From a virus: a DNA stretch of 64,000 nt. Under the pieces are notes generated by a model. It was not told where the DNA came from, ran no database searches, and was given only the letters and a program-made list of their open reading frames with translations. Positions 12,553 to 61,557 of the stretch are shown here, piece by piece; within the stretch, counting starts at the first letter, position 1; each line of letters starts with the position of its first letter. The stretch lies in the IMG/VR virus record IMGVR_UViG_3300037475_000064; one strand, 5' to 3'. The position numbers were made by a program, and so were the translations under genes.

Positions 12553-12822
12553 TCACCTCAGATCGATCTCAAGCCATTTGTTAAACTGGGGGCCAAGATG
12601 GTTCGGCTCTCGGCCCTCGTCAATGCGCTCACGGATGATGCAGCTATCCCGCCCGAAGATAGTCAGCAATGCGGGCGGCGACTTCTCGGGAGCTTCCGAC
12701 ATCAGTTTGGTCAGGACTTCGACCACGCTCGTTTCCCATATGGGAGTGCCGTCCACTAGGACATTGAGCCGCCTGCTCAACGGGTACTCTGCGAGAATTG
12801 TTTTTAGCTGATCGGTGTTCAT
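12553..12822 (-). CDS. hypothetical protein
   Basis: 89-aa ORF with protein-like composition; its 5' 180 nt overlap the tail of 12644..13189. Confidence 0.5.
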   Translation of the reverse strand: MNTDQLKTILAEYPLSRRLNVLVDGTPIWETSVVEVLTKLMSEAPEKSPPALLTIFGRDSCIIRERIDEGREPNHLGPQFNKWLEIDLR

Positions 12823-13189
12823 CGGCGTAGGCCCTCAGTTGATCTTGCAGCTTGGTGTTGATCTTTCCGGTTTTCATGAACTCATCGCAGAACGCAGCGC
12901 GGATTTCTTGTATGCGCGGAGGCGCGCTGTCTCGGGGCGGGCGGCCTCGGCCCCTAGACGTGTCTCGGGCCAGCGCAATCACTGGCTTGCCCCAGCGCGC
13001 TAGCCGCTCCGCTCTCGCGGCTTGACGCAGCGCTCGGGCCGCCGCCTGCCCGGGCTTAGGCTTGGGCACGTGGACCGGCTGACTGACTGCCCGCTCAAGG
13101 TCCCAGCCGTGCTCCAGCCGCATGTAGGCGCAGGCGTAGCTTATCCCCGCCGCGCGTGGCCGACCGTCGAGTTCGGGATGCTTAGACAT
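12644..13189 (-). CDS. putative DNA-binding protein (HTH-like N-terminus); 3' end uncertain
   Basis: N-terminal GISYACAYMRLEHGWDLERAV resembles NUMOD/HTH-type modules; C-terminal ~59 aa overlap the next gene and look low quality. Confidence 0.45.
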   Translation of the reverse strand: MSKHPELDGRPRAAGISYACAYMRLEHGWDLERAVSQPVHVPKPKPGQAAARALRQAARAERLARWGKPVIALARDTSRGRGRPPRDSAPPRIQEIRAAFCDEFMKTGKINTKLQDQLRAYADEHRSAKNNSRRVPVEQAAQCPSGRHSHMGNERGRSPDQTDVGSSREVAARIADYLRAG

Positions 13190-19587: not shown

Positions 19588-19616
19588 GTATTAACGAAAA
19601 ATTAACGATGTGTCAA
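19588..19616 (-). promoter_or_regulatory. sigma70-like promoter (TTGACA-17-TAATAC) for the SSB gene
   Basis: Near-consensus hexamers on the minus strand, about 55 nt upstream of the 19532 start. Confidence 0.6.
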
Positions 19617-26763: not shown

Positions 26764-27180
26764 TTAGCCGAGAGCGGCTAGGGCCTCTTCCGACGACACG
26801 TAAGGTGTCGCCACTGTGTATGGCTCGCCGCGCTTGGTGCGCGTCGTGTCTTCGCCGAGCAGGATGCGCCGCTTGATCTCACTGCGGATGAATGCAGCGG
26901 CGACGACGAGATTGGCGACGTTCGACCCGTAGCTCCGCAGGCCGTCCCAGTCTTCGGGATAGTAGTTGAGCAGCGCCAACGAGGTCGCGCGCTGCGCCGA
27001 GTGGCCGTCGAGAATGTGCGAGGTCAAATCCAACTGGGCTTGACCCGCGCGAAGCAGTTGGTTCTCAGTGCTGTCGGCGCGCTCGTTGGCGTCACCCCAC
27101 ATGCGGTCTTGTATCGCGACTTCCGTCGCGATCAGTTCGTCCGCGAGTTTTCCGGCGGATGATTGTTCGATAGTGGTCAT
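26764..27180 (-). CDS. hypothetical protein
   Basis: ATG at 27180 (MTTIEQSS...) preceded by GGAGAC. Confidence 0.5.
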   Translation of the reverse strand: MTTIEQSSAGKLADELIATEVAIQDRMWGDANERADSTENQLLRAGQAQLDLTSHILDGHSAQRATSLALLNYYPEDWDGLRSYGSNVANLVVAAAFIRSEIKRRILLGEDTTRTKRGEPYTVATPYVSSEEALAALG

Positions 27181-27424
27181 GAGGTCGGTCTCCAGTGAGG
27201 TTGAAAAGAAGTTTGACGGCGCGATCAAGTCTTGTCGAAAGTCGTTTCGCCCGGATGCTCTTGATCACGTCGTTGTAGCGAGACTGGGCGAGACGTTTCT
27301 TCTCGGGATGCGCCACGTGATAATCACGGTGGCGGAGCGCAGTCCGTTTTCGGCTGCACTCATGCGAACACGTTTTCCAATTTTTGTGCGAGGCGAACTC
27401 CGCGCCGCAGGATGAGCATATCAC
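27092..27424 (-). CDS. zinc-ribbon protein, first gene of leftward block (3' end uncertain)
   Basis: GTG start; CSSCG...CSHEC; last ~30 codons overlap the next gene. Confidence 0.4.
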   Translation of the reverse strand: MICSSCGAEFASHKNWKTCSHECSRKRTALRHRDYHVAHPEKKRLAQSRYNDVIKSIRAKRLSTRLDRAVKLLFNLTGDRPHDHYRTIIRRKTRGRTDRDGSRDTRPHVG

Positions 27425-27552
27425 GTGGAGGCACCAATTTCAGACACCACATGCGGTATACCGAGCCGCGAAAATTGTCAAGAGCCTCAAAATGCTTGCA
27501 TTCGTTAACTTTTGATGGTAGTGACCATGTCCCAATCCCCCGGAAAGGTCCT

Positions 27553-29916
27553 ATGATTAGACAGCGTACCCTTGACCTCGCGTGGGAATATGTAGAGCGG
27601 CACCTGTATCGCCGCTATCTTTTTCCGATCAAGCCCGGCGCAAAATTTCCGCCGCTGATCAAGAACAATCTCGAAGACGCATCGTGTGATCCTGAGCAGC
27701 TTCGCGCGTGGGAGGCGAAATGGCCCGGATGTAATTGGGGCGTCGCGCACCGCAAATCGGAGTTGATGGTCGCCGACATTGACGTGAACAAGCTCAAAGG
27801 CAAAGTCGGTCAGGCCACCTTCGATGGCCTCGACCTGATCTACGGTTGGCCGCCGACCGAGATGACCACGACGCCGTCCGGCGGCTGGCACATGATATAC
27901 GAAGGTTGGGCCAACGAGAACCACCCCGCTCACATCATGGCGCTCGGCGAGAACGGCATCGGCAAGGACATCGACAGCCCGAACTATACGCTGATCCCGG
28001 GCTGCACGTTTGACGATGGCACGTCCTACGTCGGCAACGACGCCGAAGCCGTCAAGTGCCCAGAATGGATATACGACACCATCAAGAGTGCGAAGACCAA
28101 GAGCCGCGTCACGGACGCAGGCGAGGTCGTCATTGAACTCGACCAGCAAGCCAACATCGAACTCGCGATTGACTTCCTCCAGAATGACGCCGCGCCATCC
28201 ATCCAAGGCTCAGGCGGCGACTTCAATCTGCTCAAGGCCGCCTACTACCTCAAGGACATCGGTATCTCGCAAGGGCTCGGCGCAGAACTCTTGAACGAAT
28301 ACTTCAATCCGCGTTGCGAGCCCGCGTGGGACGTGGCCGATCTCGAAAAGAAGATGGCGGGCGCGTACAGCTACGCCAATCTCTCGAAGGTAGGCGGAAA
28401 GACAGCCGAGGCCGACTTCGCCGACGAGCCGCCAGAAGCCCCAATAGAGCCGATGGGCATCTGGGACAACGAGACAAAGTCCTACAAGAAGGACCCGAAG
28501 CGGCTCAAGGGTCAGGTCAAAGCGCGAGCCAAAGTGCGTAAGCGTGAAGAGGGAAAGCTCGACGACCCGAAACGGGCGAAGACAAAGGCCAACGTCCTCG
28601 ACCAGTTCGTATGGGTCGTCGGCATGGAGCGGTTCATCAACATCGTGGACCCGGTCGGAAACGATGAACGCGACATCTGGAAACGCTCGCAGTTCGACAG
28701 CGAGTTCAACAAGATTTGGTTTCCCGCACCGAAGCGCGGCAGTGCATCGGATTTCCTGCTCCGCGTCCCCAAGGGCGGCTTGCAAAGCTTCTACCGTGTC
28801 GCGTTCAAGCCCGGGCAGCCGCGTTCGCTCGACGGCGGGCTGGCGTTCAATATGTACCGCGCGCCCGATGTGGTGCCTGTCGAGGGCGACCTCGCGTGGT
28901 GGGATGCTCATCTCGAATACCTGTTCCCGGAAGAGACCTATCGAAACCATCTCTTGGATTGGATGGGTTGGCTTGTGCAGAACCTCGACAAGAAACCGAA
29001 GCACGCGCTGATCATTCAGGGCGAGGTCAACGGCACGGGCAAGAGCTTCATCGGCAAGGTGCTCGCCCGCATTCTGCACGAGGCGAACGTCTCCATCGTT
29101 CCACAGAACGGGCTCTCGGGCCGGTTCAACTCGTGGGCTCTCCAGTGCAAGCTCATCCTGATCGAAGAGTTGCGCGCCTCTGACAAGCGCGCGGTCAAGG
29201 AAGCTCTGCACGACATTATCACCGAGGACCGCATCAACGTCGAAAAGAAAGGCGTCGATAGCATGATGGTCGATACCTGTTTCGGCGTCATGGCCTTCAC
29301 CAACGACGACGCCGCGCTCGACCTCGACAACACCGACCGCCGCTACCTCGTGATCCGCACCGACCGCACTGAGGCCGAGGCGCTTGCGCTGTCGGCGCAG
29401 GGCTACTTCATCCGGCTCTTCGCCAAGCTTGAGGACCCGACCGCGATGGCCGCCGTCGCCTACGCGCTCATGAACCGCGATCTCAAGGGCTACAACGGGC
29501 AGGCCGCCGCACCGAAGACCGAGGCAAAGGGTGGCATGAAGAAAGCCGCGATGAGCGACCTTGAGCATCACCTCGACGAGAACCGGGGCGAGTGGCCGCT
29601 CTCCAGCCGCCTCGTGACCATTGAGGACGTGATCTCATCGCTACCGAAACGTATCGAGCAGAAGGGCTACCGGCTGCACGGTACGATCAAGAAGTTCCTG
29701 TTGACCGACCTCGACGGCATTGACCTCGGCCAGTGCACGACGCCGAGTGGCAAGAAACCGCGCCTGTACGCCATCAACGGCGCGGGCAACATCCTGTCGG
29801 CCCAGCCGCGCACCGTAGCGGGCAAAGTCTACGAGGACGACAAGGTCCGGGCTGGCAAGAACCAACCGCTCGAAGACATCGACGACGCCGCCAGTGAGTT
29901 CGACGGAAAAGAATAG
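27553..29916 (+). CDS. bifunctional prim-pol primase / D5-type SF3 helicase
   Basis: N-terminal prim-pol motifs (VADIDV, GGWHMIY), central D5_N-like region, P-loop GEVNGTGKSF; ATG at 27553 with GGAAAGG RBS. Confidence 0.85.
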   Translation: MIRQRTLDLAWEYVERHLYRRYLFPIKPGAKFPPLIKNNLEDASCDPEQLRAWEAKWPGCNWGVAHRKSELMVADIDVNKLKGKVGQATFDGLDLIYGWPPTEMTTTPSGGWHMIYEGWANENHPAHIMALGENGIGKDIDSPNYTLIPGCTFDDGTSYVGNDAEAVKCPEWIYDTIKSAKTKSRVTDAGEVVIELDQQANIELAIDFLQNDAAPSIQGSGGDFNLLKAAYYLKDIGISQGLGAELLNEYFNPRCEPAWDVADLEKKMAGAYSYANLSKVGGKTAEADFADEPPEAPIEPMGIWDNETKSYKKDPKRLKGQVKARAKVRKREEGKLDDPKRAKTKANVLDQFVWVVGMERFINIVDPVGNDERDIWKRSQFDSEFNKIWFPAPKRGSASDFLLRVPKGGLQSFYRVAFKPGQPRSLDGGLAFNMYRAPDVVPVEGDLAWWDAHLEYLFPEETYRNHLLDWMGWLVQNLDKKPKHALIIQGEVNGTGKSFIGKVLARILHEANVSIVPQNGLSGRFNSWALQCKLILIEELRASDKRAVKEALHDIITEDRINVEKKGVDSMMVDTCFGVMAFTNDDAALDLDNTDRRYLVIRTDRTEAEALALSAQGYFIRLFAKLEDPTAMAAVAYALMNRDLKGYNGQAAAPKTEAKGGMKKAAMSDLEHHLDENRGEWPLSSRLVTIEDVISSLPKRIEQKGYRLHGTIKKFLLTDLDGIDLGQCTTPSGKKPRLYAINGAGNILSAQPRTVAGKVYEDDKVRAGKNQPLEDIDDAASEFDGKE

Positions 29917-30160: not shown

Positions 30161-30541
30161 CTAGGAGGCGATGGCGGCCCGCTTCCGGTCTATCAGCGAG
30201 ACCACTTTAGGGTCCGCTGGCAGCGCGCAGATGCGCCGGATCATGTTCTCATCGATGATGGCTTGCCTTAGCCACGCTCTGATCTCGTCAGTGTCACCGT
30301 TGACCACTCTGGCGAGTGTTGCACGTTGCTTGAGACGCCTGAGAGCTTCGAGCCTGTTACGACCGAAGCCCAGTTGGATGCCGAGACCCGGAGAGGGTCG
30401 GCACAGAACGATGGGTTGCAGAACGCCGACGACCGGGATGCTGATCATCAGTTGCCTTACGACTTCCTCGTCGGGCTCCCGACCGTCCACGACCTTGATC
30501 CGGTCCACGACGATCTGTTCCGACGTTAGTGTCACTGTCAT
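30161..30541 (-). CDS. ParB N-terminal (ParB/Srx fold) domain protein
   Basis: VGVLQPIVL ... LGFGRNRLEALRRL resembles ParB box II (GxxRxxA). Confidence 0.6.
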   Translation of the reverse strand: MTVTLTSEQIVVDRIKVVDGREPDEEVVRQLMISIPVVGVLQPIVLCRPSPGLGIQLGFGRNRLEALRRLKQRATLARVVNGDTDEIRAWLRQAIIDENMIRRICALPADPKVVSLIDRKRAAIAS

Positions 30542-32159: not shown

Positions 32160-32194
32160 ATCGCCCGGCGCGCAAGCTCCGGGCGATTTGCGTT
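32160..32194 (+). terminator. intrinsic terminator of the tmRNA unit
   Basis: ATCGCCCGG / CCGGGCGAT stem then TTTGCGTT; overlaps the stop of the convergent HNH gene. Confidence 0.65.
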
Positions 32195-32624
32195 AGAAGG
32201 GAATGTCCTCGGGAGCCGGGCGAGCGGGAGCGCATGGGCGGGCAGTTCTGCGGTTCTGGGATGGGGTCGCCCACGTCAGGTTCTCGCGCTCGCAGTTCAA
32301 GCTATCGCCGTCCCCGTGGTCGCCCATGGTGTGTCTATGGCTCGGCTGAGCCTTCCCGGTCCGTTTAAGGACCTCTTTGTGCAGATAGAGCTTGATCCGG
32401 CGATGCGCTGCCCCGTCCGTGGTAGAGCGCGTGGCGTATGCTTTTCGCTTATGCCGGTCCCACGTGATCTGCCATTTCCATTGCAGCGCCCACGCGTAGT
32501 CATCGAAAGAGACCGTCGCATATATCCCGCGCTCAACGTCGAGCCAGATGCGATGCTCCGCCGAAGACCTCGTCAGATGTGAAGTCGGTATGGTAGGGCA
32601 GGCCGCAGCGTTGACATCTACCAA
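32193..32624 (-). CDS. HNH homing-type endonuclease (start uncertain)
   Basis: GDHGDGDSLNCERENLTWATPSQN HNH core; upstream AP2-like IWLDVERGIYATVSFDDYAW; TTG start in the track; ends ...PEDIPF. Confidence 0.7.
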   Translation of the reverse strand: MVDVNAAACPTIPTSHLTRSSAEHRIWLDVERGIYATVSFDDYAWALQWKWQITWDRHKRKAYATRSTTDGAAHRRIKLYLHKEVLKRTGKAQPSHRHTMGDHGDGDSLNCERENLTWATPSQNRRTARPCAPARPAPEDIPF

Positions 32625-33513: not shown

Positions 33514-34097
33514 GACGGGCTCTGCCAGTGTGCCCAGACTTGCCACGCCTGCACGATGCAATCATAGACCGGCTCGTGTGCTACGCCCGGGATGTCGAGC
33601 GCGTCGCCGATGGGCACGAGGCGCATCGCCGGGGTCTCGCGGCAGAACGTCCGCATGTCGCGCGGAGCCTGATAGTGCCACATATTGTCCTTACTGATGC
33701 CGATGTCCTCAGCGAGGCCGATGATGTTGCTGAGATCGAATTGTGTGCCGTTGGCCCAGACGCGCGTCCGGCCCTCGCAGAACTTCTGCACGAGCCCAAT
33801 GGCTTCGTGTGGCGAATGATGTTCGTCGGCATCAACCCAATGCCGCGATGCCTCGTAAGGCTGCTTGGCCCAAAATTCCTGAGTGCTGACATCGACACGG
33901 CGACCGAGCGCGAGTTGCGCCGGGATGTCGAGCACGAGCAGCGAACGCTTGCCGACGAAAAGCTGCTTGAGCGGCGCGGGGTCAAACTCGATCATGCCGA
34001 TGCTCAGGATCAGCGCCTTGTGCGGATGCAGCGACATGGTTTCGATGTCAAGCATCACGTGCTCGTAGGGCGTTTCAGAAGGGGATGTCGTCGTCAT
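33510..34097 (-). CDS. DEDDh 3'-5' exonuclease (DnaQ-like)
   Basis: MLDIET (Exo I), ANGTQFD (Exo II), HEPVYDC (Exo III, H-x4-D). Confidence 0.75.
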   Translation of the reverse strand: MTTTSPSETPYEHVMLDIETMSLHPHKALILSIGMIEFDPAPLKQLFVGKRSLLVLDIPAQLALGRRVDVSTQEFWAKQPYEASRHWVDADEHHSPHEAIGLVQKFCEGRTRVWANGTQFDLSNIIGLAEDIGISKDNMWHYQAPRDMRTFCRETPAMRLVPIGDALDIPGVAHEPVYDCIVQAWQVWAHWQSPS

Positions 34098-34494
34098 CGT
34101 CGGCTCCGGGAGTTGGCTGCGGTCGTTGATGCGAGGCAGCCCGCCTTCGGGCGATCTCGATACTGTGCGGGAAGCCGAGTGGCTTGCGGTCGGCGTCCAT
34201 TTGCTGAATTGTATAGCCCAGACGCGCCGCGTGTGTCAACCATCGGCGCGCTGTCTCTTTATCGGCGCACTCAATGCCGACCCGGTCCTTGCGCGACCAA
34301 TCGTAATGCAGCGGGCAGGCGAGGTTCTTCGGCGGCCTGATATCGTGATTGATTGAGAAGCGGAACGGCTTCTCAGTCAGCGCCAGACATTTCTCGGCGA
34401 GCATGAGCGCGACCTGTCGGTCATCGAACGCGGGCGTGATCTCCAGCAGCTTTTGCGAGATCGATTTCTTGTGCATGCCCTTTAGGACGCCCAC
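34075..34494 (-). CDS. hypothetical protein ending in SSB-tip-like DDDDDIPF
   Basis: 139 aa, no OB-fold SSB signature seen; C-terminus ...PGADDDDDIPF verified codon by codon. Confidence 0.55.
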   Translation of the reverse strand: MGVLKGMHKKSISQKLLEITPAFDDRQVALMLAEKCLALTEKPFRFSINHDIRPPKNLACPLHYDWSRKDRVGIECADKETARRWLTHAARLGYTIQQMDADRKPLGFPHSIEIARRRAASHQRPQPTPGADDDDDIPF

Positions 34495-37735: not shown

Positions 37736-37797
37736 ATTGATCTCAATTCCGGGTCTGTTGGCCGCTGTCGGTACGCTGCTTTTGGGGTGATGTCAAT

Positions 37798-37830
37798 GGT
37801 GAGAAAAGAGGTGAGAAATTTGGTGAGAAA
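37798..37830 (+). repeat. iterons: 3 x GGTGAGAAA at 12-bp spacing
   Basis: Copies at 37798, 37810 and 37822; immediately upstream (minus sense) of a TTGACA at 37791-37796. Confidence 0.8.
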
Positions 37831-38032
37831 TTGGGCGTTTGGGGTCGATTTTCACTGTTTTTGGGTCGGATTTCATTTTCGCCGACCCGCATAAACATTG
37901 GGTTTCTTGCATCGCGGAGGCCCGAAAACAGGGTCTTTTTCGGTCGCTAATCGGTCGTCCGCTGGGGGCCGCGATAAACCTTAACTCTTGCTAACGTGCT
38001 CTGATCAAAGCTCAATTCGGCGCGCGGCCCAA

Positions 38033-38121
38033 TTTCTCACCTCTTTTCATTTCTCACCTATTTCTCACCAAATTTCTCATCTTATGTCGTTGATAACACA
38101 ACAATTTCTCACCTTCTCACC
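38033..38121 (-). repeat. iterons: 5-6 copies of the same 9-mer in opposite orientation (TTTCTCACC)
   Basis: Copies at 38033, 38050, 38061, 38073 (degenerate), 38105 and 38114. Confidence 0.8.
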
Positions 38122-38174
38122 TCTTTTACATATTCTTTAGTGAGTATGGTGTGTGTATAGGAGTTGACGAATTT

Positions 38175-38191
38175 GGTGAGAAGGTGAGAAA
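38175..38191 (+). repeat. iterons: 2 adjacent GGTGAGAA(A) copies
   Basis: GGTGAGAAGGTGAGAAA. Confidence 0.7.
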
Positions 38192-38220
38192 TCGGGTCAC
38201 TTTTGGGGCCTTTGGCTCAT

Positions 38221-38590
38221 GCAAGGGGTAGCTGCTATTAGGGTTAATTTAGAGTTAAGATAAACCCTGCATCGTGGCGTTTTAACCTTAACAGTTAAGA
38301 TTAATGCGCACGAAGGCCCCTGTGGCGGCTATTAACCCTATCAATTAACCTTAATTTAGGGGTTGTAGGCCCCTAAAGGCTTGATATTATTAACTTTTAT
38401 TCTTTACGTTAATCGCTTAGCCCTGCGTATAGCGCATGCACTCATGCACATGCATCCATATCCCCTTGATATCATTACACTATTGTCGTGATGTTCCATA
38501 CTATATGTTATGCGAATTGACGTTAACCTTAATCACTATGCATTAACCTAAATTGTTTACGTTAATCGCTATTAGTAGTGCTCGAAGCAT
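38221..38590. repeat. AT-rich repeat region (TTAACCTTAA x3, TTTACGTTAATCGCT x2, palindromes)
   Basis: TTAACCTTAA at 38282, 38345 and 38523; 15-mer at 38403 and 38556; GCTATTAGGGTTAA / TTAACCCTAT inverted; ATGCA triplet at about 38435-38452; clearly lower GC than its flanks. Confidence 0.75.
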
Positions 38591-38810
38591 TGACCCCTCC
38601 ACAAGATGGTGCTACCCTAGCCTCGCAGAGATAGGCCGTAGGACCCAGATTTTGCATCGAAGCGCCAGACGCAATGTCCCCCTGCTCGCACACACCGCCT
38701 CGATTTTGAACCGAAATTTAGAAAAATAAAAATATGAGGATTAAGAAAAACTCTTGCCTCCCCAAATTTTTCGTGCTAGGGCAACCTGACAATTTCACAA
38801 GGTCCCCAAC

Positions 38811-39653
38811 GTGACGCGCCTGAGCACATCATCCCCGACGAGGTTCTTCACCGGCAAGCCATGCGTGCGCGGCCACATCGCCGAGCGCTTGATCAGCAAC
38901 AACGGCTGCGTCGTCTGTCAGAACGAACGGAAGGCGAAGCGCGGCCAGTCGCCGGACTATCGCGCCCGCCGCAACGCCCGGCTGAAACGCAAGCGCGATG
39001 AGCGGCGGGAGCCGAGGATATGTGCGGTTTGCTTCGGGGCCTTCGACGCGCAAGAGGGCAACCGCTTCGCGGCTAGGACCTGTTCGCCCGAGTGCGGCGA
39101 GACGTTCTATGCGCGCAACCGCAAAAAGCAGCCGGACAAAGAATGCGATCACTGCTTCGCGATGTTCGCGTCGCGCAACCCGGCGCAGCGTGCGTGCTCG
39201 CCCCAGTGCAGGGCCGCGCTCGAAGCCGAGCAGCGGGCGGCTCGGACCAAGCCGTGCGTCAAATGCGAGACAGTGTTCAACCTGAGCAGCGACGACAACG
39301 GGCGCAATGGCTTTTGCTCAGACGAGTGCCGGGGTGAGGCCCGTGCAGAGCGATGCGCCTCCGCGTACCAGCGGCTCCGCATCCACAAGCCCGAGGTCAT
39401 CGTCGCGAGGAAAGCCCGATACCGACTTAACCAGCCCGAGGCGTTCATGCGTACTCGGAAAACCATCAACAACCGTCGTGTCGCTGGCGAGACCGCCGCG
39501 TATGAGGTCGCGAAGCAAATGATCCCTGACGCGCTGGCCGGTCTTCCCGGCTATCGTGCCAAGGTTCGCGCGTCTGTCGAGTTCTTGCGTTCGATAGGTA
39601 TGAACCCCAGCAAGCCAACGGAGAAAACTGATGTCCCCCTTCGATCAACTTAA
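38811..39653 (+). CDS. multi-zinc-ribbon protein, first gene of the rightward operon
   Basis: GTG start; FTGKPCVRGH...NGCVVC plus four further C-x2-C/CS-x-EC units, basic linkers. Confidence 0.6.
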   Translation: MTRLSTSSPTRFFTGKPCVRGHIAERLISNNGCVVCQNERKAKRGQSPDYRARRNARLKRKRDERREPRICAVCFGAFDAQEGNRFAARTCSPECGETFYARNRKKQPDKECDHCFAMFASRNPAQRACSPQCRAALEAEQRAARTKPCVKCETVFNLSSDDNGRNGFCSDECRGEARAERCASAYQRLRIHKPEVIVARKARYRLNQPEAFMRTRKTINNRRVAGETAAYEVAKQMIPDALAGLPGYRAKVRASVEFLRSIGMNPSKPTEKTDVPLRST

Positions 39654-42396: not shown

Positions 42397-42717
42397 ATGA
42401 CCGGAAGACCAATCAACGAAGACCGTCAGCGCGCCATCGCGCTCGGCCTGCGAACCTACACCGGCTTGAAGCACGTCAAGTGCGACACGACGCTGCGCTA
42501 CGTCGCGGGCGGCGGCTGCGTTCACTGCGCGAGGATCATCGCGACCGAACAGCGCGAGGCGCGGAAGTATCTCCAGCAAATCGGGGCGCTCGACGTGACC
42601 GCTAAGGATGTCGAAGCAATGGCTATTGACAATGCCACGGAAATCGAGGAAGAGGATGAGGACAGCGAAGCTGTACGGCAGGCCAGACGCGAAGCTTCAA
42701 TCGACGAACTCATGTGA
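42397..42717 (+). CDS. zinc-ribbon protein with acidic tail
   Basis: YTGLKHVKCDTTLRYVAGGGCVHC shares the motif found at the N-terminus of 38811..39653. Confidence 0.5.
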   Translation: MTGRPINEDRQRAIALGLRTYTGLKHVKCDTTLRYVAGGGCVHCARIIATEQREARKYLQQIGALDVTAKDVEAMAIDNATEIEEEDEDSEAVRQARREASIDELM

Positions 42718-50958: not shown

Positions 50959-51249
50959 ATGAAAGACGCACTAGGACACGGGTCGAACACCGGGCTCCAC
51001 TCGGGCGGGACGCAGAAGACGCCGCAACTACAGCGTCGGCACTTCGAGGCGATTGCCGCTGACTTGAAGGCCAAGAGCGCGTCGCCCGAAGAGGTTCACG
51101 CAATGGCTGACAAGCTCGCGACCACGAACCCCGGCTTCCGCCGGGACTTCTTTGTCGCTGCCGCGACCGGCGGCGGCTATCGGTTCAAGGGGCCGGGCAA
51201 CAACCCGGCGTCTGTCGCGCGCAAAGCGAAGAAATACTCTGGGGGCTAA
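50959..51249 (+). CDS. GHGSN-leader family protein 2
   Basis: Starts MKDALGHGSNTGLHSGG; AGGGGA RBS. Confidence 0.6.
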   Translation: MKDALGHGSNTGLHSGGTQKTPQLQRRHFEAIAADLKAKSASPEEVHAMADKLATTNPGFRRDFFVAAATGGGYRFKGPGNNPASVARKAKKYSGG

Positions 51250-51335
51250 GGATGCAATGTGGTACGCGAACGCGCTCTTTCGACTGGGCTTGTTCGTGAT
51301 CGCAGCGAGCATCTTGCTTGCGAAGGGACGATGGA

Positions 51336-51599
51336 ATGAAAGACGCAGCGGGACATGGCAGCAATGGGAAGGGCAGCAACTCGGCTCTGACCAAGACGCA
51401 AGGTCCCGCGTCCCCGATACCTCGCGGGCCGACCGGCAAGGGCGGTAAGGGCTTCGGACAAGTTCACGGCGGCGTCGTGATGTCGTCGAATGCACAAGCG
51501 GCGGGCGCTCTGATGTCCTCGCTAAAATCAACTCAGGCCCCGGTCCATCCTGCTATGATGTACCATCGGCCATCACCGGACGGCGGATCAGCATCATGA
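51336..51599 (+). CDS. GHGSN-leader family protein 3
   Basis: ATG at 51336, MKDAAGHGSN; Gly/Lys-rich. Confidence 0.55.
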   Translation: MKDAAGHGSNGKGSNSALTKTQGPASPIPRGPTGKGGKGFGQVHGGVVMSSNAQAAGALMSSLKSTQAPVHPAMMYHRPSPDGGSAS

Positions 51600-52102
51600 A
51601 AGACGCAAAAGGTCACGGCAGCAATGCAGGCTGGAAAGTATCGCTGACCGGCAAAGGCACCGAAGACGGCGTCAAGTGGTCGCGAGTTTCGCGTGAGTTC
51701 AACGTCCCTGCGAGCCGTGCGCGCACTCAAGCTGACGCGGAGCGCGAAGCTATCAACGCGCACGAGAGCATGGGCTGGTACAAGAACATGAGAGTGACTG
51801 GCAGTGAACCGATCTTTGATCCGGCTCACGAACTCGCCAGCGGCCCGAAGTCGGCACCGGCTCCCGTTCACGACAGCATGTCCGGGCGGCTCCAAACGCC
51901 GGGCGAGCAGTATGCGATGAAATCCTCGGGCGGGCCGAAGTGGAAATATCAGGATGCGCGCGGCGTTGATCAGACCGGCCACATGGAGCGGTACGTCGAA
52001 CACGGCGGAACCGATCACACCGCATATATGCGGAGCGACAGCGGCGATCTTCACCTAGTCAGCGGCTCACGCCTCAAGGCGATGAGCAGAATTTGGAAAT
52101 GA
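51596..52102 (+). CDS. GHGSN-leader family protein 4
   Basis: MKDAKGHGSN; internal LASGPKSAPAPVHDSM; ATGA overlap. Confidence 0.6.
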   Translation: MKDAKGHGSNAGWKVSLTGKGTEDGVKWSRVSREFNVPASRARTQADAEREAINAHESMGWYKNMRVTGSEPIFDPAHELASGPKSAPAPVHDSMSGRLQTPGEQYAMKSSGGPKWKYQDARGVDQTGHMERYVEHGGTDHTAYMRSDSGDLHLVSGSRLKAMSRIWK

Positions 52103-52103
52103 T

Positions 52104-52298
52104 ATGTCGCGCAAAAAGAAACACGAAGTAGATGACAAAACCGCGAAGGAAGCGCTACGCTACGGCGGCAAGTCTGGCGCGGTGCCTACGCACTCTGCAA
52201 TGCAAGACCCCGACGCTGACGCAACCGACGCCGAGCCCGACGATGACAGCAACGAAGACGAAGACAACGACAACGACTTCGACGAGAACCGGAGCTAA
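52104..52298 (+). CDS. small highly acidic protein
   Basis: 64 aa; GGKSGAVPTHSAM then a D/E/N-rich tail. Confidence 0.5.
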   Translation: MSRKKKHEVDDKTAKEALRYGGKSGAVPTHSAMQDPDADATDAEPDDDSNEDEDNDNDFDENRS

Positions 52299-52301
52299 GT
52301 C

Positions 52302-52373
52302 ATGATCGCAGACCTATTCGCGATACTCGTTTGCGGCGGCGCAGTCTTCGCGCTGCTTAAAGGATTTTTCTGA
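52302..52373 (+). CDS. 23-aa hydrophobic peptide
   Basis: Hand translation MIADLFAILVCGGAVFALLKGFF; GGAG RBS at 7 nt. Confidence 0.4.
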   Translation: MIADLFAILVCGGAVFALLKGFF

Positions 52374-52374
52374 A

Positions 52375-52971
52375 ATGAGCAAAGTCAGCCGCAAGGCATT
52401 TCCGCATGCCCTCAAGGCGGTCTACGATTTCATTGACGCGCTCGCAGCGGGCGGCGGAGGCGGCGGAGGCACCGCTGCGTATTCGGTCACTATCCCGCTC
52501 GTTACGAGCGCGACCCCGCTCGTCGTCACGCCGGACGTGAATGCTCCGCCACTGACGATCTACGAAGTCACCAGCGGCGGCACTGGGGGCAACGAGTTCA
52601 TCGGTTTCGTGCGCTATGCCAAAGACGCGGACCTGACGTTTGGCAACCTCACTCAGAACGGCAAGCATGCGGTGTTTGTCCTAAAGACGCGAACGAACGC
52701 GCTGGACAAGGTCTATATTCAGGGCCTCCCCACGGCTGCCGACATCAGCGGGTCGGCTCGCGCTAATCAGACTTTCTACGACGCGGCGGGAAAAATTGTC
52801 GCGCACATCAACACCGGAAACACCGCGACCCCCGGACCGGGCGGCTCGTTTGGCGGGGCTCTCATCGACTACGTCGGCGCTGCCATGGCGTACACGTGGA
52901 TGTACGAAGAGTGGGCCGCGCGTCAGGACATGGTTGACGAAGAAAACGACAACGATATCGTAACCCCGTAA
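52375..52971 (+). CDS. hypothetical protein (Gly run, beta-rich)
   Basis: 198-aa ORF. Confidence 0.55.
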   Translation: MSKVSRKAFPHALKAVYDFIDALAAGGGGGGGTAAYSVTIPLVTSATPLVVTPDVNAPPLTIYEVTSGGTGGNEFIGFVRYAKDADLTFGNLTQNGKHAVFVLKTRTNALDKVYIQGLPTAADISGSARANQTFYDAAGKIVAHINTGNTATPGPGGSFGGALIDYVGAAMAYTWMYEEWAARQDMVDEENDNDIVTP

Positions 52972-52981
52972 GGAATGACAG

Positions 52982-53497
52982 ATGGCTAAAGATCAACTGG
53001 GACACGGCAGCAATCAGCGGGGCACGGGCGCGCAGGGAATGCGGCTCGTGAAAACGCATGTGCTCGGCCCTCACTCCGCCAAGGTCTACAAGAACCCGGA
53101 TTGGGAAGAGAACGTCGTCAAGTTTTTCCACAACGGCGTCTACCAGTCGAAGGCCGATAGTCATACGAACGATCTCGCGGACGCGCACGCGACGGCGCGC
53201 TTTCAGCTTCAACGCTACATGGATCAGGACGCAAAGGCGTCACTGGCCAGCGGCCCGAAGTCGGATGCAGCCCCGACGCACGATAGCATGACCAACCTAC
53301 AGGGTAGCATCGAACGCGGTCACGCGATGCGCTCCGCAGGCGACGGCAGGCACGTATCGGGCTTTGCAGCGGGCGGTCGTCACGGCTACAGCCCCGACGC
53401 GGTCAACAAAGCCATCGCCTCGTCGAACCGCTCCGGTCGGCGCATCGGCGGACGTGAAGCGAAGATGATCCACGCCATTATCAAGGGCCGGGGGTAA
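52982..53497 (+). CDS. GHGSN-leader family protein 5
   Basis: MAKDQLGHGSN; internal LASGPKSDAAPTHDSM. Confidence 0.6.
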   Translation: MAKDQLGHGSNQRGTGAQGMRLVKTHVLGPHSAKVYKNPDWEENVVKFFHNGVYQSKADSHTNDLADAHATARFQLQRYMDQDAKASLASGPKSDAAPTHDSMTNLQGSIERGHAMRSAGDGRHVSGFAAGGRHGYSPDAVNKAIASSNRSGRRIGGREAKMIHAIIKGRG

Positions 53498-53609
53498 ATG
53501 GTCGGCCAGAGAATTTCGAAGCCGGTTCAACTCGCCGTTAAGATTGTTTTGCCGAACCGCGTGCAACGAACGCCGGTCCCGGATAAAAAGCCCGAGAAGG
53601 ACAAAGACA

Positions 53610-53843
53610 GTGAAAGACCCACTAGGACACGGTAGCAACGGGCGCGGCGCATTCAAATCGCCGAAGCATCAGTTCAAGGTCGAGAAGCACATCGCTTTTC
53701 ACGGAACGACTGCGGCTGGCCAGAAGGTCACCACGACCGGCAACGTCTGGCAAAAAGTCGGCGCGGGTCGTCGGGCTGTCGCAGAGAAGCTCGCGCAATT
53801 CGCTCGTGTCGATAATCCCAACTCTCGCGTGAGGATCAGATAA
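53610..53843 (+). CDS. GHGSN-leader family protein 6
   Basis: GTG at 53610 gives VKDPLGHGSN at the same N-terminal position as its paralogues; GAAGGA RBS. Confidence 0.5.
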   Translation: MKDPLGHGSNGRGAFKSPKHQFKVEKHIAFHGTTAAGQKVTTTGNVWQKVGAGRRAVAEKLAQFARVDNPNSRVRIR

Positions 53844-53845
53844 AC

Positions 53846-54079
53846 ATGAAGGCAGCAATTCCCTCAGTGCTCGCGCTCGCTATCGTCGCCGTGCTCGCCT
53901 ATTTCCACGACTGGCAGACGCAGGCCCCAGTCGCGGCTCCCGTGATCGGGCCGTTCGCGTATGCGGACGCTGTCATGCCGTCGTTCGTACCGACGCCGAA
54001 GCCGCGTCCGCGACATCATCGGCGTCATCGTTTCGCTGTTTGCAAGCCGCCGCTGCCCGGACTGGAGTTATCGAAATGA
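53846..54079 (+). CDS. N-terminally anchored membrane protein
   Basis: 77 aa; TM IPSVLALAIVAVLAYF. Confidence 0.5.
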   Translation: MKAAIPSVLALAIVAVLAYFHDWQTQAPVAAPVIGPFAYADAVMPSFVPTPKPRPRHHRRHRFAVCKPPLPGLELSK

Positions 54080-54513
54080 AGGACGCGCTAGGTCACGGCA
54101 GCAACGCGCATAGCGGCGGCATCGAAAAGATCGGCAAGATCAAGGTGCATCCGCAGGCGACGGCCACTGCCGTCTATAATCTGCTCCATTCGGGCGGCTT
54201 CTCCGTCAAGCCTGAGACCGGCGCTTCACCGAAATCGGGCTACATGGTTTCGATACCGGGGCACACGAAGATCATCGCGGGCGACCCCGACGAGCGTGCA
54301 ATCCAGCAGTACGCGAATGAACACGCTGGCGTGCTTCAACATCCCGGAGCCCATATCGGCGGCTGGCAGCACGAAGGCAATACCTACCTCGACGTGTCCC
54401 ATCGGTACAGCAGCAAGAGCAAAGCCGCTGCCGCCGGAAAGCAGCACAATCAGATCGCGATATGGGATGTGAAACATGGGCGAGAGATCAACACGGGCGG
54501 CACCGGGGAGTAG
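54076..54513 (+). CDS. GHGSN-leader family protein 7
   Basis: MKDALGHGSNAHSGG; globular C-terminal domain (GGWQHEGNTYLDVSH...NQIAIWD); ATGA overlap. Confidence 0.6.
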   Translation: MKDALGHGSNAHSGGIEKIGKIKVHPQATATAVYNLLHSGGFSVKPETGASPKSGYMVSIPGHTKIIAGDPDERAIQQYANEHAGVLQHPGAHIGGWQHEGNTYLDVSHRYSSKSKAAAAGKQHNQIAIWDVKHGREINTGGTGE

Positions 54514-58135: not shown

Positions 58136-58651
58136 ATGCAGCTAGGTTCGGAGACTTTTGTCAGAAGTCGGGGACGTATCTCGACGCCGGAGACGCGTGA
58201 GGCCGAAAAGCTTCGAGCGCGAGCGAAGCGCGCTGTCAACCGTGAGCCTAGTCGGGCTGCGGCGCGTCGCTACAACGCTAATCATCCCGGTCGGCATCAA
58301 GAGGCGCGGCGAAACTGGCGCTATGCTAATCCGGTAAAGCGCCTTCTCCAGACTGCTAAGGCTAGGGCAAAGCAGCGAGGTCTTGAGTTTGCTATCACTG
58401 CGAACGACCTCCAGCCGTTCCCCACGCACTGTCCTGTGCTTGGGATAAAACTTCAATACGGTGGGGAGCAGGGAAAGAATTTGCGGGCGAAAAGCAAGTG
58501 GGCGCTCGCGTCCCTTGATCGTCGTGACAATTCTCTCGGATATATTTCCGGGAATGTTTTTATCATCAGCCTTCGCGCTAACATGCTAAAGAGTGATGGC
58601 ACTCCCGATGAGCATCGCGCTATCGCTAAATGGGCGGGAGAGATCACATGA
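58136..58651 (+). CDS. HNH endonuclease
   Basis: CPVLGIKLQY...ASLDRRDNSLGYISGNVFIISLRANMLK; basic repeat N-terminus; GAGGA RBS. Confidence 0.7.
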   Translation: MQLGSETFVRSRGRISTPETREAEKLRARAKRAVNREPSRAAARRYNANHPGRHQEARRNWRYANPVKRLLQTAKARAKQRGLEFAITANDLQPFPTHCPVLGIKLQYGGEQGKNLRAKSKWALASLDRRDNSLGYISGNVFIISLRANMLKSDGTPDEHRAIAKWAGEIT

Positions 58652-60348
58652 GTTTAGTTGACAAGCATCCCGAGTTCGTAGAAAGATTGGCCGAGTGGAT
58701 ACAGATGGCCGATACCTATGCGGGCGAGCGCGTCGTCAAGTCGAAGCGGCTTGACTACCTCCCCGCGACCGAGGGCATGGTACAGGACGGCATGACAACG
58801 CCGTCTTCGCTCGGCTGGAAAGACTACGACGCGTACATGATGCGCGCCTATTTCCACGACGTAGTCAAAGATGCCGTCAAAGCCATGGTCGGCATCATGC
58901 ACAACAAGCCCGCCGTGATCAAACTTCCGAAGCGCCTCGAAGGCATGCTGGAGAAGGCGACTATCCAAGGCGAGGGCTTGCAGATGTTGCTCCGCAGGAT
59001 CAACGTCGCGCAACTCGTGTACGGGCGCTGCGGTTTGCTCGTGGACGCGCCGCAGAACGTGGACGTTGACAAGGCGACGCCGTATCTGGCGTTCTACAAC
59101 CCCGAACGAATTATCAACTGGGATGCGGGCAAGCTCAACGAGGGCATGAACGAACTCGACCTCGTCGTGCTCGACGAAGGCGGCTATCGCCGTGAAGGCT
59201 TCACGTGGAAAACCGAGAAGAAATATCGCGTGCTGACGCGCGGAGGCCAAGCCGAACTCGATAGCGGCTGGGAACGTCCGCCGGTCGGCGCTCCCTACGG
59301 CGTCGCGGTCAAGGTCAATGACACGAGCATGCCAATGCTGACCGACTTCATCTACCCGAGCATTGGCGGTAACACGCTCGACCAAATTCCGTTCGTCTTC
59401 ATCGGGGCGAACGATCTCGTACCGGAGCCCGAAGTGTCCCCGCTTCTCGGCTTGTCGAACCTCGCGCTCGCGATTTATCGGGCCGAGGCCGACTACCGTC
59501 AGACGCTCTACTTGCAGGGTCAGAACACGCTCGTCATCATCGGCGGCGCGGTTGACGAGGCCGCGCCGTCGCAACTGCGCGTCGGCAACAAGGGCGTCAT
59601 CGATCTCCGCGTCGGCGGCGATGCGAAATATATCGGCGTCTCTCCAGCGGGCCTCGGCGAAATGCGGCAATCGCTTATGGCGGACAAAGAAGCTGCCGCT
59701 GCCGAGGGCGTCGCGTTCTTGGATGTCGGCAATGCTCGCGGCGAAAGCGGCGAAGCTCTTCGCATCCGCGTGGCCGCGCGCACCACCACGATCTCGTCTG
59801 TTGCCCAATGCGCGGGCGCTGGGCTTGAGCAGGCGCTCAAGTTCGCCGCTCAGTGGGTTGGAGAAGACCCGGAAGAAGTTTCGGTCGAGCCGACCACAGA
59901 CTTCGCCGATCAGACCGTCGCTGGCGCTGCTCTGCTCGCCTTTATGCAGGCGAAGCAACTGGGCTTGCCGCTGTCTCTTCGTTCTATGCACCGCATGATG
60001 AAGCTTAACGACATGACGGAGATGGATTTTGAAGAAGAGAACGAACAGATCGAAGAGGAAGCTGCATCGATGCTCGGCGCGATGGTCGCGCCGTTCCAAG
60101 GAACCGTCACTGATGACACGTTTCTCGACGAAGATGTCAGCCCGCTATCTGATCCAGCGGCGGGCACTCCCGGCGGCACTACACCTCCCGCCGGTACTAC
60201 GCCTCCGGCTGGGCCTGCATCGACCGCCCCGCCTAATAAAAACGTTCCGATCAAACCGAACTCGCAAAGCCCGAAGGGGCACACACGCGGCTCTCCAGTT
60301 CCGCTGAAACGCAAGGTGGGCAAGAAGGGCGCGTCGGCTGGAAAATGA
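58648..60348 (+). CDS. portal protein (DUF4055-like)
   Basis: 566 aa, immediately after terL/HNH; ATG at 58648 with GGGAGAG RBS; Pro/Gly-rich basic tail. Confidence 0.7.
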   Translation: MSLVDKHPEFVERLAEWIQMADTYAGERVVKSKRLDYLPATEGMVQDGMTTPSSLGWKDYDAYMMRAYFHDVVKDAVKAMVGIMHNKPAVIKLPKRLEGMLEKATIQGEGLQMLLRRINVAQLVYGRCGLLVDAPQNVDVDKATPYLAFYNPERIINWDAGKLNEGMNELDLVVLDEGGYRREGFTWKTEKKYRVLTRGGQAELDSGWERPPVGAPYGVAVKVNDTSMPMLTDFIYPSIGGNTLDQIPFVFIGANDLVPEPEVSPLLGLSNLALAIYRAEADYRQTLYLQGQNTLVIIGGAVDEAAPSQLRVGNKGVIDLRVGGDAKYIGVSPAGLGEMRQSLMADKEAAAAEGVAFLDVGNARGESGEALRIRVAARTTTISSVAQCAGAGLEQALKFAAQWVGEDPEEVSVEPTTDFADQTVAGAALLAFMQAKQLGLPLSLRSMHRMMKLNDMTEMDFEEENEQIEEEAASMLGAMVAPFQGTVTDDTFLDEDVSPLSDPAAGTPGGTTPPAGTTPPAGPASTAPPNKNVPIKPNSQSPKGHTRGSPVPLKRKVGKKGASAGK

Positions 60349-60596: not shown

Positions 60597-61557
60597 TCCA
60601 TCACAGGCTCGCAATAACCACGGCGAGTTCGGCACGACGGATGTCGCGCTCAAAGGGCCTCAACAGACGGGAGGCGCGAGTGCGCTTGTCACTGAGCGAC
60701 CGATCAACCTTGCGGCTCATAAGGGAGCAGACACTCCCGAGGAAGCGCAGGCGCAAGCGACCCTTGTCGCGGCTGGAGCAAAACCTCTTGAGGGGCTGCC
60801 TCAGAAGCCTATCGAGTTGGCCGGACAATGGTACGTCCCCGGTCCGATTGGTCGGCTCAAGGATGCCGCCAGTGAGTACATGAAAGAGGCCGGGCTGCCG
60901 TACAACCCGCCGACCGACTACGCGAAGCTCGACAAAGAGCGAGCCGCGAAGATCGCGGACGCCTATGATCACATGAAGGACGACCCGGCCAACCCCGAGG
61001 TGAAGAAGAGCTACGACGCGCTCGTCAAGGAAACTCTGGCACAATGGAACGTGATCAAGCAGACCGGCTTGCAAGTCGAGTGGGTCAAGCCCGGGCAGAA
61101 GGACCCTTATGCGCTGTCGCCGCGTCTCGCTGCGATGGACGTGAGCGAAAATAATCATTGGTGGGGCTTCCCCACGGACCTCGGCTACGGCTCGGGCGTC
61201 GGCAAAAGCAACACGGGAGAGACGAACCCGATGCTCAGGCCGACCGGCGAAGTGATCGGCGGGCGGCCCGTGGTCGTCAATGACGTGTTCCGCATCGTGC
61301 ACGACATGATGGGGCACCTCAAAGAAGGAAATGGTTTCAGGGCCGAGGGCGAGGAAAATGCTTGGCGCTCTCACGCTGCGATGTATTCGGATACTGCACG
61401 CCCGGCGATGACTTCGGAGACGCGCGGTCAGAACTCGTGGGTCAACTACGGCCCGCACGGCGTTACGAACCGCACCGCTGACGCGGAGCATACGGTCTTC
61501 GCTCCGCAGAAGATCGGGCTCATGCCGGACTGGACAGAGAATGACGGACGACATTGA
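60586..61557 (+). CDS. head-module protein of unknown function
   Basis: 323 aa, GTG start; N-terminal DPSQARNNHGEFG; conserved-looking VHDMMGHLKEGNGFRAEGEENAW. Confidence 0.55.
   Translation: MTYDPSQARNNHGEFGTTDVALKGPQQTGGASALVTERPINLAAHKGADTPEEAQAQATLVAAGAKPLEGLPQKPIELAGQWYVPGPIGRLKDAASEYMKEAGLPYNPPTDYAKLDKERAAKIADAYDHMKDDPANPEVKKSYDALVKETLAQWNVIKQTGLQVEWVKPGQKDPYALSPRLAAMDVSENNHWWGFPTDLGYGSGVGKSNTGETNPMLRPTGEVIGGRPVVVNDVFRIVHDMMGHLKEGNGFRAEGEENAWRSHAAMYSDTARPAMTSETRGQNSWVNYGPHGVTNRTADAEHTVFAPQKIGLMPDWTENDGRH

Follow-up and report, generated by a model that had tools for sequence, protein, structure and literature searches.

The origins of Staphylococcus aureus pathogenicity islands (SaPIs) contain 6–12 short iterons and an AT-rich centre, which is flanked on either side by two or more iterons in opposite directions. 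The SaPI initiators (Rep and PriRep) are self-loading SF3 helicases that read these iterons through a C-terminal winged helix; in SaPI5, a primase is fused to the helicase (PMC9371898). The order of primase, SF3 helicase and winged helix is also that of ORF904, the replication protein of the archaeal plasmid pRN1, and of the alpha protein of satellite phage P4; for ORF904, the best-studied example, neither iterons nor a cognate site could be found (PMC2777425). Few replication proteins of phages, plasmids and integrated elements are as common as those that combine a Prim-Pol with an SF3 helicase, and little is known of how they find their start sites. P4 has octamer iterons in both orientations, distributed over two separated cis elements, ori and crr. 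Geminivirus Rep and SV40 large T act on short, virus-specific iterons located in the intergenic region between divergent promoters. Both of these initiators carry an SF3 helicase and also regulate transcription, and in both systems the iteron and the domain that reads it co-vary.

Here, we describe four arrays of short repeats in the control region of an uncultivated phage that encodes a protein of the Prim-Pol/SF3 type, and compare them with these systems.

The phage and its gene-free control region

The stretch of DNA analysed (64 kb; hereafter the window) is phage DNA and is part of an 84,146-bp Logan contig from SRR12917118. Its leftward arm is devoted to replication and nucleotide metabolism, and encodes DNA polymerase A, an SNF2 helicase, a DUF2800 nuclease, an Enc34-type SSB, HIRAN and SprT proteins, an Rv2179c-like exonuclease and a protein with Prim-Pol and DUF5906 domains. 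The rightward arm encodes small uncharacterised proteins followed by the portal and morphogenesis genes. Searches of the ∼100 ORFs of the window with Pfam and PHROGs returned no repressor, integrase, Rep, DnaA-like protein or partition motor; matches to the Serglycin family were artefacts of GS linkers. The nearest isolated phage is Roseobacter phage RDJL3 (43% in the polymerase). Homologues of the primase-helicase are also present in Bradyrhizobium chromosomes, and GANTC is nearly absent from the window. These two observations point to an alphaproteobacterial host, and the hosts of this phage group are probably Bradyrhizobium-like.

The two arms are separated by a 1,075-bp gene-free gap (37736–38810), which contains the arrays and holds nearly all of the least stable DNA of the window. 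Rfam, tRNA and E. coli-type promoter and terminator scans of this gap gave nothing meaningful, and the leftward promoter given in Table 1 was also missed by the E. coli-type consensus scan. Two small ORFs over the arrays (37743–37898 and 37988–38140) yield low-complexity peptides that merely translate the repeats, and we did not accept them as genes.

Eleven iterons form four arrays

The word GGTGAGAAA is present in eight exact copies in the 64 kb, against 0.47 expected, and none of 100 shuffles reached eight. All eight are confined to 394 bp (37798–38191), with starts at 37798, 37810, 37822 and 38183 on the plus strand and at 38033, 38050, 38061 and 38105 on the minus strand. With the three copies that carry one mismatch, 38073− (GATGAGAAA), 38113− and 38175+ (GGTGAGAAG), the cluster has 11 members. 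We therefore count 11 iterons, words of 8–9 nt, in these non-coding 394 bp and none elsewhere in the 64 kb, where the other one-mismatch matches (n = 4) are scattered and at chance level. The actual repeat unit is ∼12 bp, wwwGGTGAGAAAtt. The copy at 38073 is a perfect TTTCTCACC in three ∼99% identical metagenome contigs, which retain every copy, indicating that the mismatch is a recent mutation in the window.

The eleven 9-bp copies described in an earlier note on this DNA are thus borne out, and so is the arrangement that it gave: three direct copies at 12-bp spacing, copies in the opposite orientation at 38033–38121, of which we counted six, and two more direct copies at 38175–38191. The copies fall into four arrays, A to D (Table 1), with array B ∼200 bp to the right of array A. 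Arrays C and D are inverted repeats of each other, perfect over 18 bp (38104–38121/38175–38192). The duplex stability of the spacer between them is ∼3.5 SD below the mean of the window, although it is not the sole least-stable stretch, since the A-tract and the TTAA-rich blocks to its right are equally or less stable.

Table 1. Features of the control region, the candidate initiator gene and their coordinates in the window
Feature	Coordinates	Strand	Description
Putative leftward early promoter	37768..37796	-	TTGACA (37796-37791), 17-nt spacer, TACCGA (37773-37768)
Array A	37798..37830	+	three direct GGTGAGAAA, 12-bp spacing; directly upstream of leftward -35
A-B spacer block	37876..37911	.	TTTTCGCCGACCCGCATAAACATTGGGTTTCTTGCA; near-identical in L177 and L175, recognisable in L019
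Array B	38033..38081	-	four reverse copies, spacing 17, 11 and 12 bp; last copy TTTCTCATC
TTGATAACAC box	38090..38099	+	between arrays B and C; nucleotide-level conservation
Array C	38105..38121	-	two reverse copies, 8-bp spacing; left arm of inverted repeat
C-D spacer	38122..38174	.	53 nt, 32% GC; T-rich left end, (TG)n-TATAGGAG right end
Array D	38175..38191	+	two forward copies, 8-bp spacing; right arm of inverted repeat
Block after array D	38200..38219	.	TTTTGTGGCCATTGGCTC in relatives, CTTTTGGGGCCTTTGGCTCA here; conserved
Second repeat family	38238..38566	.	5-6 palindromes TTAACCTTAA-N3-TTAAGGTTAA; non-lineage-specific
Predicted rightward operon promoter	38715..38782	+	A-tract (UP-like), TTGCCT (38754-38759), N17, TAGGGC (38777-38782)
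Candidate initiator, 834 aa	27412..29916	+	Prim-Pol, SF3 (DUF5906, NrS-1-like) helicase, C-terminal winged helix
C-terminal module	29509..29913	+	aa ∼700-834, winged helix aa ∼734-788

Predicted promoters and other conserved blocks of the gap

We confirmed both the leftward ORF start at 37735 and the minus-strand TTGACA (TGTCAA at 37791–37796), which is 1 nt away from the first iteron copy. Relative to the putative leftward promoter, array A occupies about −38 to −70. The −35 beside array A recurs in L176 (as the identical GATGTCAATG), L019, L017, L183 and L259, and the leftward promoter of L176 reads TTGACA-N17-TACGGC. On the other side, the rightward promoter-like element lies ∼570 bp from the arrays and is kept as CTTGAC-N17-TAGGGA or TACGTG, after a AAAAATAAAAAT tract, in L017, L019, L177 and L183. 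The claim that the arrays lie upstream of the rightward operon thus holds only loosely, as this operon appears to have its own promoter at that distance.

Besides the iterons, the gap has several other conserved elements. The TTGATAACAC box was found in L019, L178, L257, L258 and L259, and as TTGATAACAT in L180 and L255; its identification as a DnaA box, a CtrA box or an IHF site (the last judged by eye) was unsupported. No DnaA box (≤1 mismatch) is present in 37736–38810. The second repeat family is strongly concentrated: TTAACSTWAA (≤1 mismatch) has 18 matches in the window against 2.0 expected, 15 of them in the region of this family and one at 37975. Words of the TTAA palindrome dominate the equivalent region in every relative, including those without iterons. 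Control by CtrA through TTAA-N7-TTAA was considered and rejected; one perfect box (38244–38258) is present and is not conserved among the relatives, and the recurrent TTAA palindromes have a spacing of N2, N3 or N9, not the N7 of CtrA.

The layout is conserved in 12 related contigs

Distant relatives were gathered through homologues of the primase-helicase, which number ∼160, and of the exonuclease. Twelve related contigs (L017, L019, L176, L177, L178, L180, L183 and L255–L259) share the layout of the window. Its order begins with an array adjoining a minus-strand TTGAC(A/G/T) and a ∼200-bp spacer with a conserved block, followed by a reverse array, the TTGATAACAC box, a reverse pair, an AT-rich spacer and a forward pair. 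Then come the TTTTGTGGCCATTGGCTC-like block and several TTAACCTTAA-N3-TTAAGGTTAA palindromes, and the order ends with an A-tract and a predicted CTTGAC-N17-TAGGG promoter, next to which the first rightward gene starts.

The C pair is present in 12 of 12 iteron-bearing relatives, and array D of L017 is the identical GGTGAGAAGGTGAGAAAT. The C–D spacer measures 45–62 nt with a GC of 0.29–0.38 in 11 of the 12 correctly measured lineages, the exception being L183 with 105 nt; the spacer of L259 was mis-anchored in the length script and is ∼51 nt when read directly from the sequence. An equivalent of array A (2–4 copies at the same relative position) is found in L017, L019, L176, L177, L178, L183 and L259, and equivalents of array B also occur in relatives.

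The words themselves are lineage-specific around a common core, YGAGWAR: GGTGAGAAA in the window, CGTGAGTAA and GGTGAGAA in L017, CCGAGAAA in L019 and L259, GTCTGAGTAA in L176, and mixtures elsewhere. In contrast to the iteron words, the palindromes of the TTAA type and the promoter blocks keep their sequence from lineage to lineage. Neither of the two genes that border the gap is conserved among these phages, which suggests that the reader of the arrays is encoded elsewhere and is common to the family. The product of 38811–39653, which had been proposed as a binder, is without a homologue in all of the array-keeping relatives. A second proposed candidate, 12644–13189, corresponds to no ORF in the rough ORF map. 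A cI/Cro-type switch was likewise rejected, as the flanking first genes lack a match to an HTH family and are not conserved in the array-keeping relatives.

Three further lineages (L175, L179 and L181) have a primase-helicase with a third type of module, and their arrays are weak or absent, which is unexplained by the origin model proposed below. RDJL3 has a modest cluster of ACCAGT at the equivalent place, which we regard as a lead and not as evidence.

Other searches did not extend this set. Megablast and blastn of the region against a phage collection gave no match, and scans of IMG/VR with the 280-aa protein and with the primase gave no close relatives. All contigs that matched the pattern GGTGAGAAANNNGGTGAGAAA in IMG/VR were unrelated and most were of low GC, and in one the match was a coding FGEK repeat; the 15-mer probe TTAAGATTAATGCGC, run against metagenomes, was too unspecific and recovered one true relative, which was already known. 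A scan of the genome collection with an exonuclease profile found only distant, unrelated loci.

A primase-helicase as the candidate reader

The candidate initiator matches Pfam PF09250 (Prim-Pol) and PF19263 (DUF5906), and PDB 6k9c (phage NrS-1) aligns to its helicase core with an E value of 8e-29. Single-sequence and profile searches against PDB sequences returned only NrS-1, and gave no similarity of this protein to SaPI Rep or P4 alpha.

For the C-terminal part, an AlphaFold (AF2) model of aa 667–834 (pLDDT 89) predicts a helical lid followed by a winged helix of strand-helix-helix-helix-strand-strand topology. The third helix of this winged helix, RLHGTIKKFLL (aa 755–765), is the putative recognition helix. 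Foldseek against the PDB gave no significant single match to the C-terminal winged helix; the top non-significant matches were almost all winged-helix DNA binders, and the best fold matches among viral models were the C-termini of other phage primase-helicases. The arrays lie 7.9–8.3 kb from the end of the primase-helicase gene (29916), with more than 20 genes between.

Iteron type co-varies with the C-terminal module

We counted YGAGWWR words in hand-delimited array regions and compared them with the putative recognition helix of each phage. Phages with an RLH helix (the window, L017, L177 and L256) have 37 TGAG words and one CGAG word, while those with an RLT or RLV helix (L019, L259, L257 and L258) have 11 and 25, respectively. 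L183, with a KPR helix, has three TGAG and seven CGAG words, and L176, with an RIA helix, has eight TGAG words with a distinct GTC flank and no CGAG.

Between the RLH and the RLT/RLV groups, identity over aa 725–800 is 47–56%, compared to 63–79% within the groups. The Prim-Pol and helicase domains lack this split, as do the exonuclease, whose gene lies between the primase gene and the arrays, and five further small conserved proteins. In a sliding window, the within-minus-between identity is 13–23 points in the last ∼135 residues, and mostly ∼0–7 points elsewhere in the protein, with up to 10 around aa 477–546. When all 35 4/4 splits of the eight phages were ranked, the one based on the iterons came first (19.6 versus 5.0 for the next). 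The group-specific positions 756 and 761 fall within the putative recognition helix.

These phages are mosaic, and L019 is a good example. It is nearest to the window in the exonuclease (71%) and in the Prim-Pol domain (84%), and despite this closeness it shares its module type and its CCGAGAAA words with L259.

This co-variation is the main evidence that the primase-helicase may read the words, and it should be taken with the following in mind. Identity over the whole C-terminus was at first not cleanly related to the iteron word, and the signal emerged after five lineages were added and domains were compared; moreover, the helix groups were first seen in the protein alignment, before the test was formalised. 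As there are only about four module types, few independent events lie behind the co-variation. TGAG and CGAG words are mixed within one array in many lineages, so the difference in specificity may be soft. Against the co-variation, the TGAG iterons of L176 come with yet another helix, RIA.

Comparison with known origins

The closest design is that of the SaPIs. The 11 iterons are within the SaPI range, and the two reverse copies of array C and the two forward copies of array D flank an AT-rich spacer, an arrangement conserved in 12 relatives. The protein combines an SF3 helicase with a winged helix at its C-terminus (the latter modelled), and its primase is fused as in SaPI5. We consider that two inverted iteron pairs around an AT-rich centre, together with a reader of the SF3/winged-helix type, probably represent a variant of the SaPI Rep design. 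The differences are also clear. SaPI iterons are 5–6 nt long compared to the 8–9 nt of the words here; the SaPI origin is located directly downstream of rep, whereas the arrays are ∼8 kb from the gene and inside a divergent early control region. There are two extra arrays, one of them at a promoter, and the primase is of the Prim-Pol (AEP) type. In addition, the second family of conserved palindromes that follows the arrays here sets this locus apart from both SaPI and P4.

In P4, the two cis elements recall arrays C/D plus A/B. Its alpha protein has the order of primase, SF3 helicase and C-terminal winged helix, as here (PMC2777425). However, alpha has a DnaG-type primase and is without detected sequence similarity to the protein of the window. 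The domain order of pRN1 ORF904 is identical (Prim-Pol of PF09250, SF3 helicase and winged helix), and the difference lies in the candidate site, which is conspicuous here. Among solved structures, sequence similarity was detected to NrS-1 (6k9c) alone; it covers the helicase core and, by sequence search, stops short of the C-terminal module. Taking together the distance, the word size, the four arrays, the palindromes, the Prim-Pol and the lack of homology, the locus would work like an origin of the SaPI/P4 type and would not be a member of that family.

The iterons of the RepA, pi and TrfA plasmid origins are 17–22 bp long, in contrast to the 8–9-bp words described here. These plasmids and lambda rely on a dedicated protein, Rep or O, to bring in the host helicase, and DnaA boxes are often present, whereas no Rep- or O-type gene was found here: there is no Rep-family domain in the ∼100 ORFs and, as noted above, no DnaA box in the gap. 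The lambda ori also differs in sitting inside a gene. Geminivirus Rep and SV40 large T are alike in having intergenic iterons between divergent promoters, an initiator with an SF3 helicase and co-variation of word and domain, but their DNA-binding domains (HUH or OBD) are unrelated and their hosts are eukaryotic, and geminiviruses initiate by a rolling-circle mode.

A proposed replication origin

We propose, with a probability of about 60%, that the four arrays are the iterons of the replication origin of the phage, putatively read by the primase-helicase. The earlier note had offered two readings, one of an array bound by a regulator or initiator that controls both early operons and one of the iterons of an origin. 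The second of these is better supported, by the layout conserved in 12 phages, by the inverted pair around the AT-rich spacer and by the co-variation with the module; control of both operons is unsupported. Direct control of the rightward operon by the arrays is unlikely because of the distance to its conserved promoter, while the position of array A beside the conserved −35 makes an effect on the leftward promoter plausible.

As arrays C and D with their spacer match the SaPI design feature for feature, we propose them as the core origin. In the mechanism that we infer, from word binding through spacer melting to the promoter effect, the primase-helicase would recognise single YGAGWAR words (here GGTGAGAAA) via its C-terminal winged helix. 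The opposed word pairs C and D would place two helicase assemblies on either side of the AT-rich spacer, where the DNA would melt and the helicases would load, and the fused primase-polymerase would then begin synthesis. Arrays A and B, ∼75 and 300 bp leftward, may supply cooperative, auxiliary binding sites, and array A would probably also couple the occupancy of the initiator to transcription of the leftward operon, which carries the replication genes.

Among the observations that count against the origin reading are the ∼8 kb between the arrays and the initiator gene, where a SaPI origin adjoins rep, and the place of array A at a promoter, which would suit the site of a transcription factor equally well. 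An explanation on these lines, in which the words are operators of a phage transcription factor that switches the leftward promoter (and perhaps one in the C–D spacer) and have no role in replication, appears unlikely to us. The adjacency of array A to the conserved −35 agrees with it, as do an inverted copy inside the promoter spacer of L176, words overlapping the −10 region in L178 and a conserved TATAG(G/T) core 12–22 nt before array D. Arrays of short repeats at divergent promoters are, moreover, typical of Mu, phi105 and omega/ParR-type regulators. However, the TATAG core lacks a −35 at constant spacing, the rightward operon is served by a distant promoter of its own, and neither of the flanking first genes, which in a cI/Cro-type switch would be the regulator genes, is conserved in the relatives. 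Pfam and PHROGs searches of the ∼100 ORFs gave no HTH or RHH regulator, and no small conserved protein tracks the iteron type.

The layout argument for an origin is independent of which protein binds, and the words could be read by another conserved protein, for example the 139-aa protein (34075–34494), with the primase-helicase loaded secondarily. Nearly all relatives have this protein with its SSB-like DDDDDIPF tail, through which replication proteins of the host could be recruited. We nevertheless judge this version improbable, as the relationships of the protein do not track the iteron type, it has no family match, and in a single-sequence model, itself of low confidence, no DNA-binding fold is seen.

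Two other explanations are very improbable. In parC of plasmid R1, two sets of short repeats are arranged around a promoter, and the arrays resemble such a plasmid-type partition site (centromere), which a ParB- or ParR-like protein would bind; a 126-aa ParB_N protein is indeed encoded at 30161–30541, and ParB-fold proteins had been suggested as binders in the earlier note. Its gene, however, is undetected in several array-keeping relatives, including L177, whose locus spans that neighbourhood, and the protein is too short for a specific DNA-binding domain; furthermore, searches of the 64-kb window of the 84-kb contig gave no ParA, ParM, TubZ, integrase or other lysogeny or plasmid-maintenance gene. 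Repeated short boxes are also what terminase small subunits bind, and the equivalent divergent region of the distant relative RDJL3 adjoins the small terminase gene, but a pac or cos region recognised by the small terminase is hardly compatible with a morphogenesis block (portal 58630–60348) that begins >17 kb away, with none of 14 contigs ending at the region, and with words that co-vary with a replication protein.

Implications for the phage family

Returning to the origin reading, we can picture the region as a dual-purpose hub, in which the primase-helicase would both fire the origin and, from its place beside the −35, set the level of the leftward operon, much as SV40 large T and geminivirus Rep act on transcription. 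The winged-helix module and the iteron word would then be exchanged as one unit, a 'replicon specificity cassette'. This extension is tentative and we hold it to be doubtful; if true, the cassette would define which co-infecting relatives can or cannot use each other's initiator. The words GGTGAGAAA, CCGAGAAA and GTCTGAGTAA, each accompanied by a distinct winged-helix module, would be natural variants of specificity. With these variants and a conserved candidate site, recognition, loading and the swapping of specificity become directly testable. The proposed site is the first origin prediction for a large uncultivated group of 60–125-kb soil phages, and it suggests a route to locating the origins in related genomes.

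A conserved palindrome family beside the iterons

Downstream of the iterons (eleven 9-bp repeat copies at the proposed phage replication origin), we observed a second repeat family, made up of 5–6 palindromes of the type TTAACCTTAA-N3-TTAAGGTTAA (see table for coordinates). The word TTAACSTWAA, with up to one mismatch allowed, has 18 matches in the window against 2.0 expected, and almost all of them lie within this stretch. Because the sequence of the palindromes is itself kept in every relative, the iteron-less ones included, they are probably the sites of a conserved dimeric protein. Perfect CtrA-type boxes (TTAA-N7-TTAA) occur twice in the window, against 0.09 expected; the 38244 box is not conserved among the relatives.

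In the related contig L175 (IMGVR_UViG_3300025913_000027), the region equivalent to 37736-38200 retains the conserved blocks together with the TTAA palindromes, and recognisable iterons were not found there. This region also carries an additional small ORF, HTH-like in appearance when judged by eye. Two other relatives, L179 and L181, have just 2–3 ACTCAG-type words, and their winged-helix module is of a third type, as in L175. The corresponding divergent region of Roseobacter phage RDJL3, the closest isolated phage, has four ACCAGTswsAC words in 58 bp directly upstream of the first early gene. This cluster may be an analogous array built on an unrelated word.

Orientation and mosaicism of the primase-helicase gene

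The primase-helicase, the proposed reader of the iterons, is encoded by the sole large plus-strand gene within a ∼33-kb minus-strand block. This inversion is common to all the relatives and RDJL3, where the homologue is annotated as 'integrase'. The protein is a mosaic, its C-terminal module being swapped independently of the remainder. In some relatives (L017 and L018), a GapR-type DNA-binding protein is encoded beside this gene; the GapR type is an alphaproteobacterial nucleoid protein family. No GapR Pfam match was found for the window gene at the corresponding position.

Depletion of GANTC

GANTC, the CcrM/HinfI-type site, occurs once in the 64-kb window against 357 ± 19 expected, and ranks first by a wide margin among short palindromes ordered by depletion. 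The relatives L017, L019, L175–L183 and L257–L259 have 0–1 sites per ∼20 kb (∼75 expected), and RDJL3 has six in 61.5 kb (∼231 expected). L184 is the exception without depletion (44 sites, 74 expected).

Protein motifs and DIPF tails

Upstream of the morphogenesis block, the motif K-D-x-x-G-H-G-S-N (MKDALGHGSN, for instance) recurs in at least six ORFs; it lies at or close to the N-terminus and could be a common targeting or cleavage tag. Two plus-strand products start with the same cysteine motif, C-x...R-x...G-G-C-V-x-C, that matches the unknown-function PHROG families phrog_1081, 23777 and 15231; the 280-aa product has several more C-x-x-C pairs. Another product weakly matches the dATP/dGTP diphosphohydrolase N-terminal domain (E 2e-4, below the curated cut-off).

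Coordinates of the features in the window and in related phages
Feature	Genome	Position	Strand
TTAA palindromes	window	38238-38566	
CtrA-type boxes	window	38244-38258; 19591-19605	
GANTC site	window	3612-3616	
Primase-helicase gene	window	27412-29916	+
Gene at GapR position	window	26764-27228	
139-aa protein	window	34075-34494	-
HNH_3 protein	window	32193-32624	-
K-D-x-x-G-H-G-S-N ORFs	window	50959-54513	+
Cysteine motif, 280 aa	window	38811-39653	+
Cysteine motif, second product	window	42397-42717	+
Weak diphosphohydrolase match	window	6619-7131	-
ACCAGTswsAC words	RDJL3 (L016)	11386-11444 (record 61386-61444)	
GapR-type protein	L017	9597-9863	
GapR-type protein	L018	9532-9864	

The 139-aa protein has the C-terminus DDDDDIPF, a tail resembling the C-terminal tip of bacterial SSB. 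ORFs of the same size and position have a (D/E)-rich ...DIPF tail in 14 of the 17 relatives' loci. The HNH_3 protein ends in EDIPF, and this ending is kept in several relatives. Both DIPF-tailed proteins may be mimics of the SSB tip that recruit host proteins interacting with SSB.
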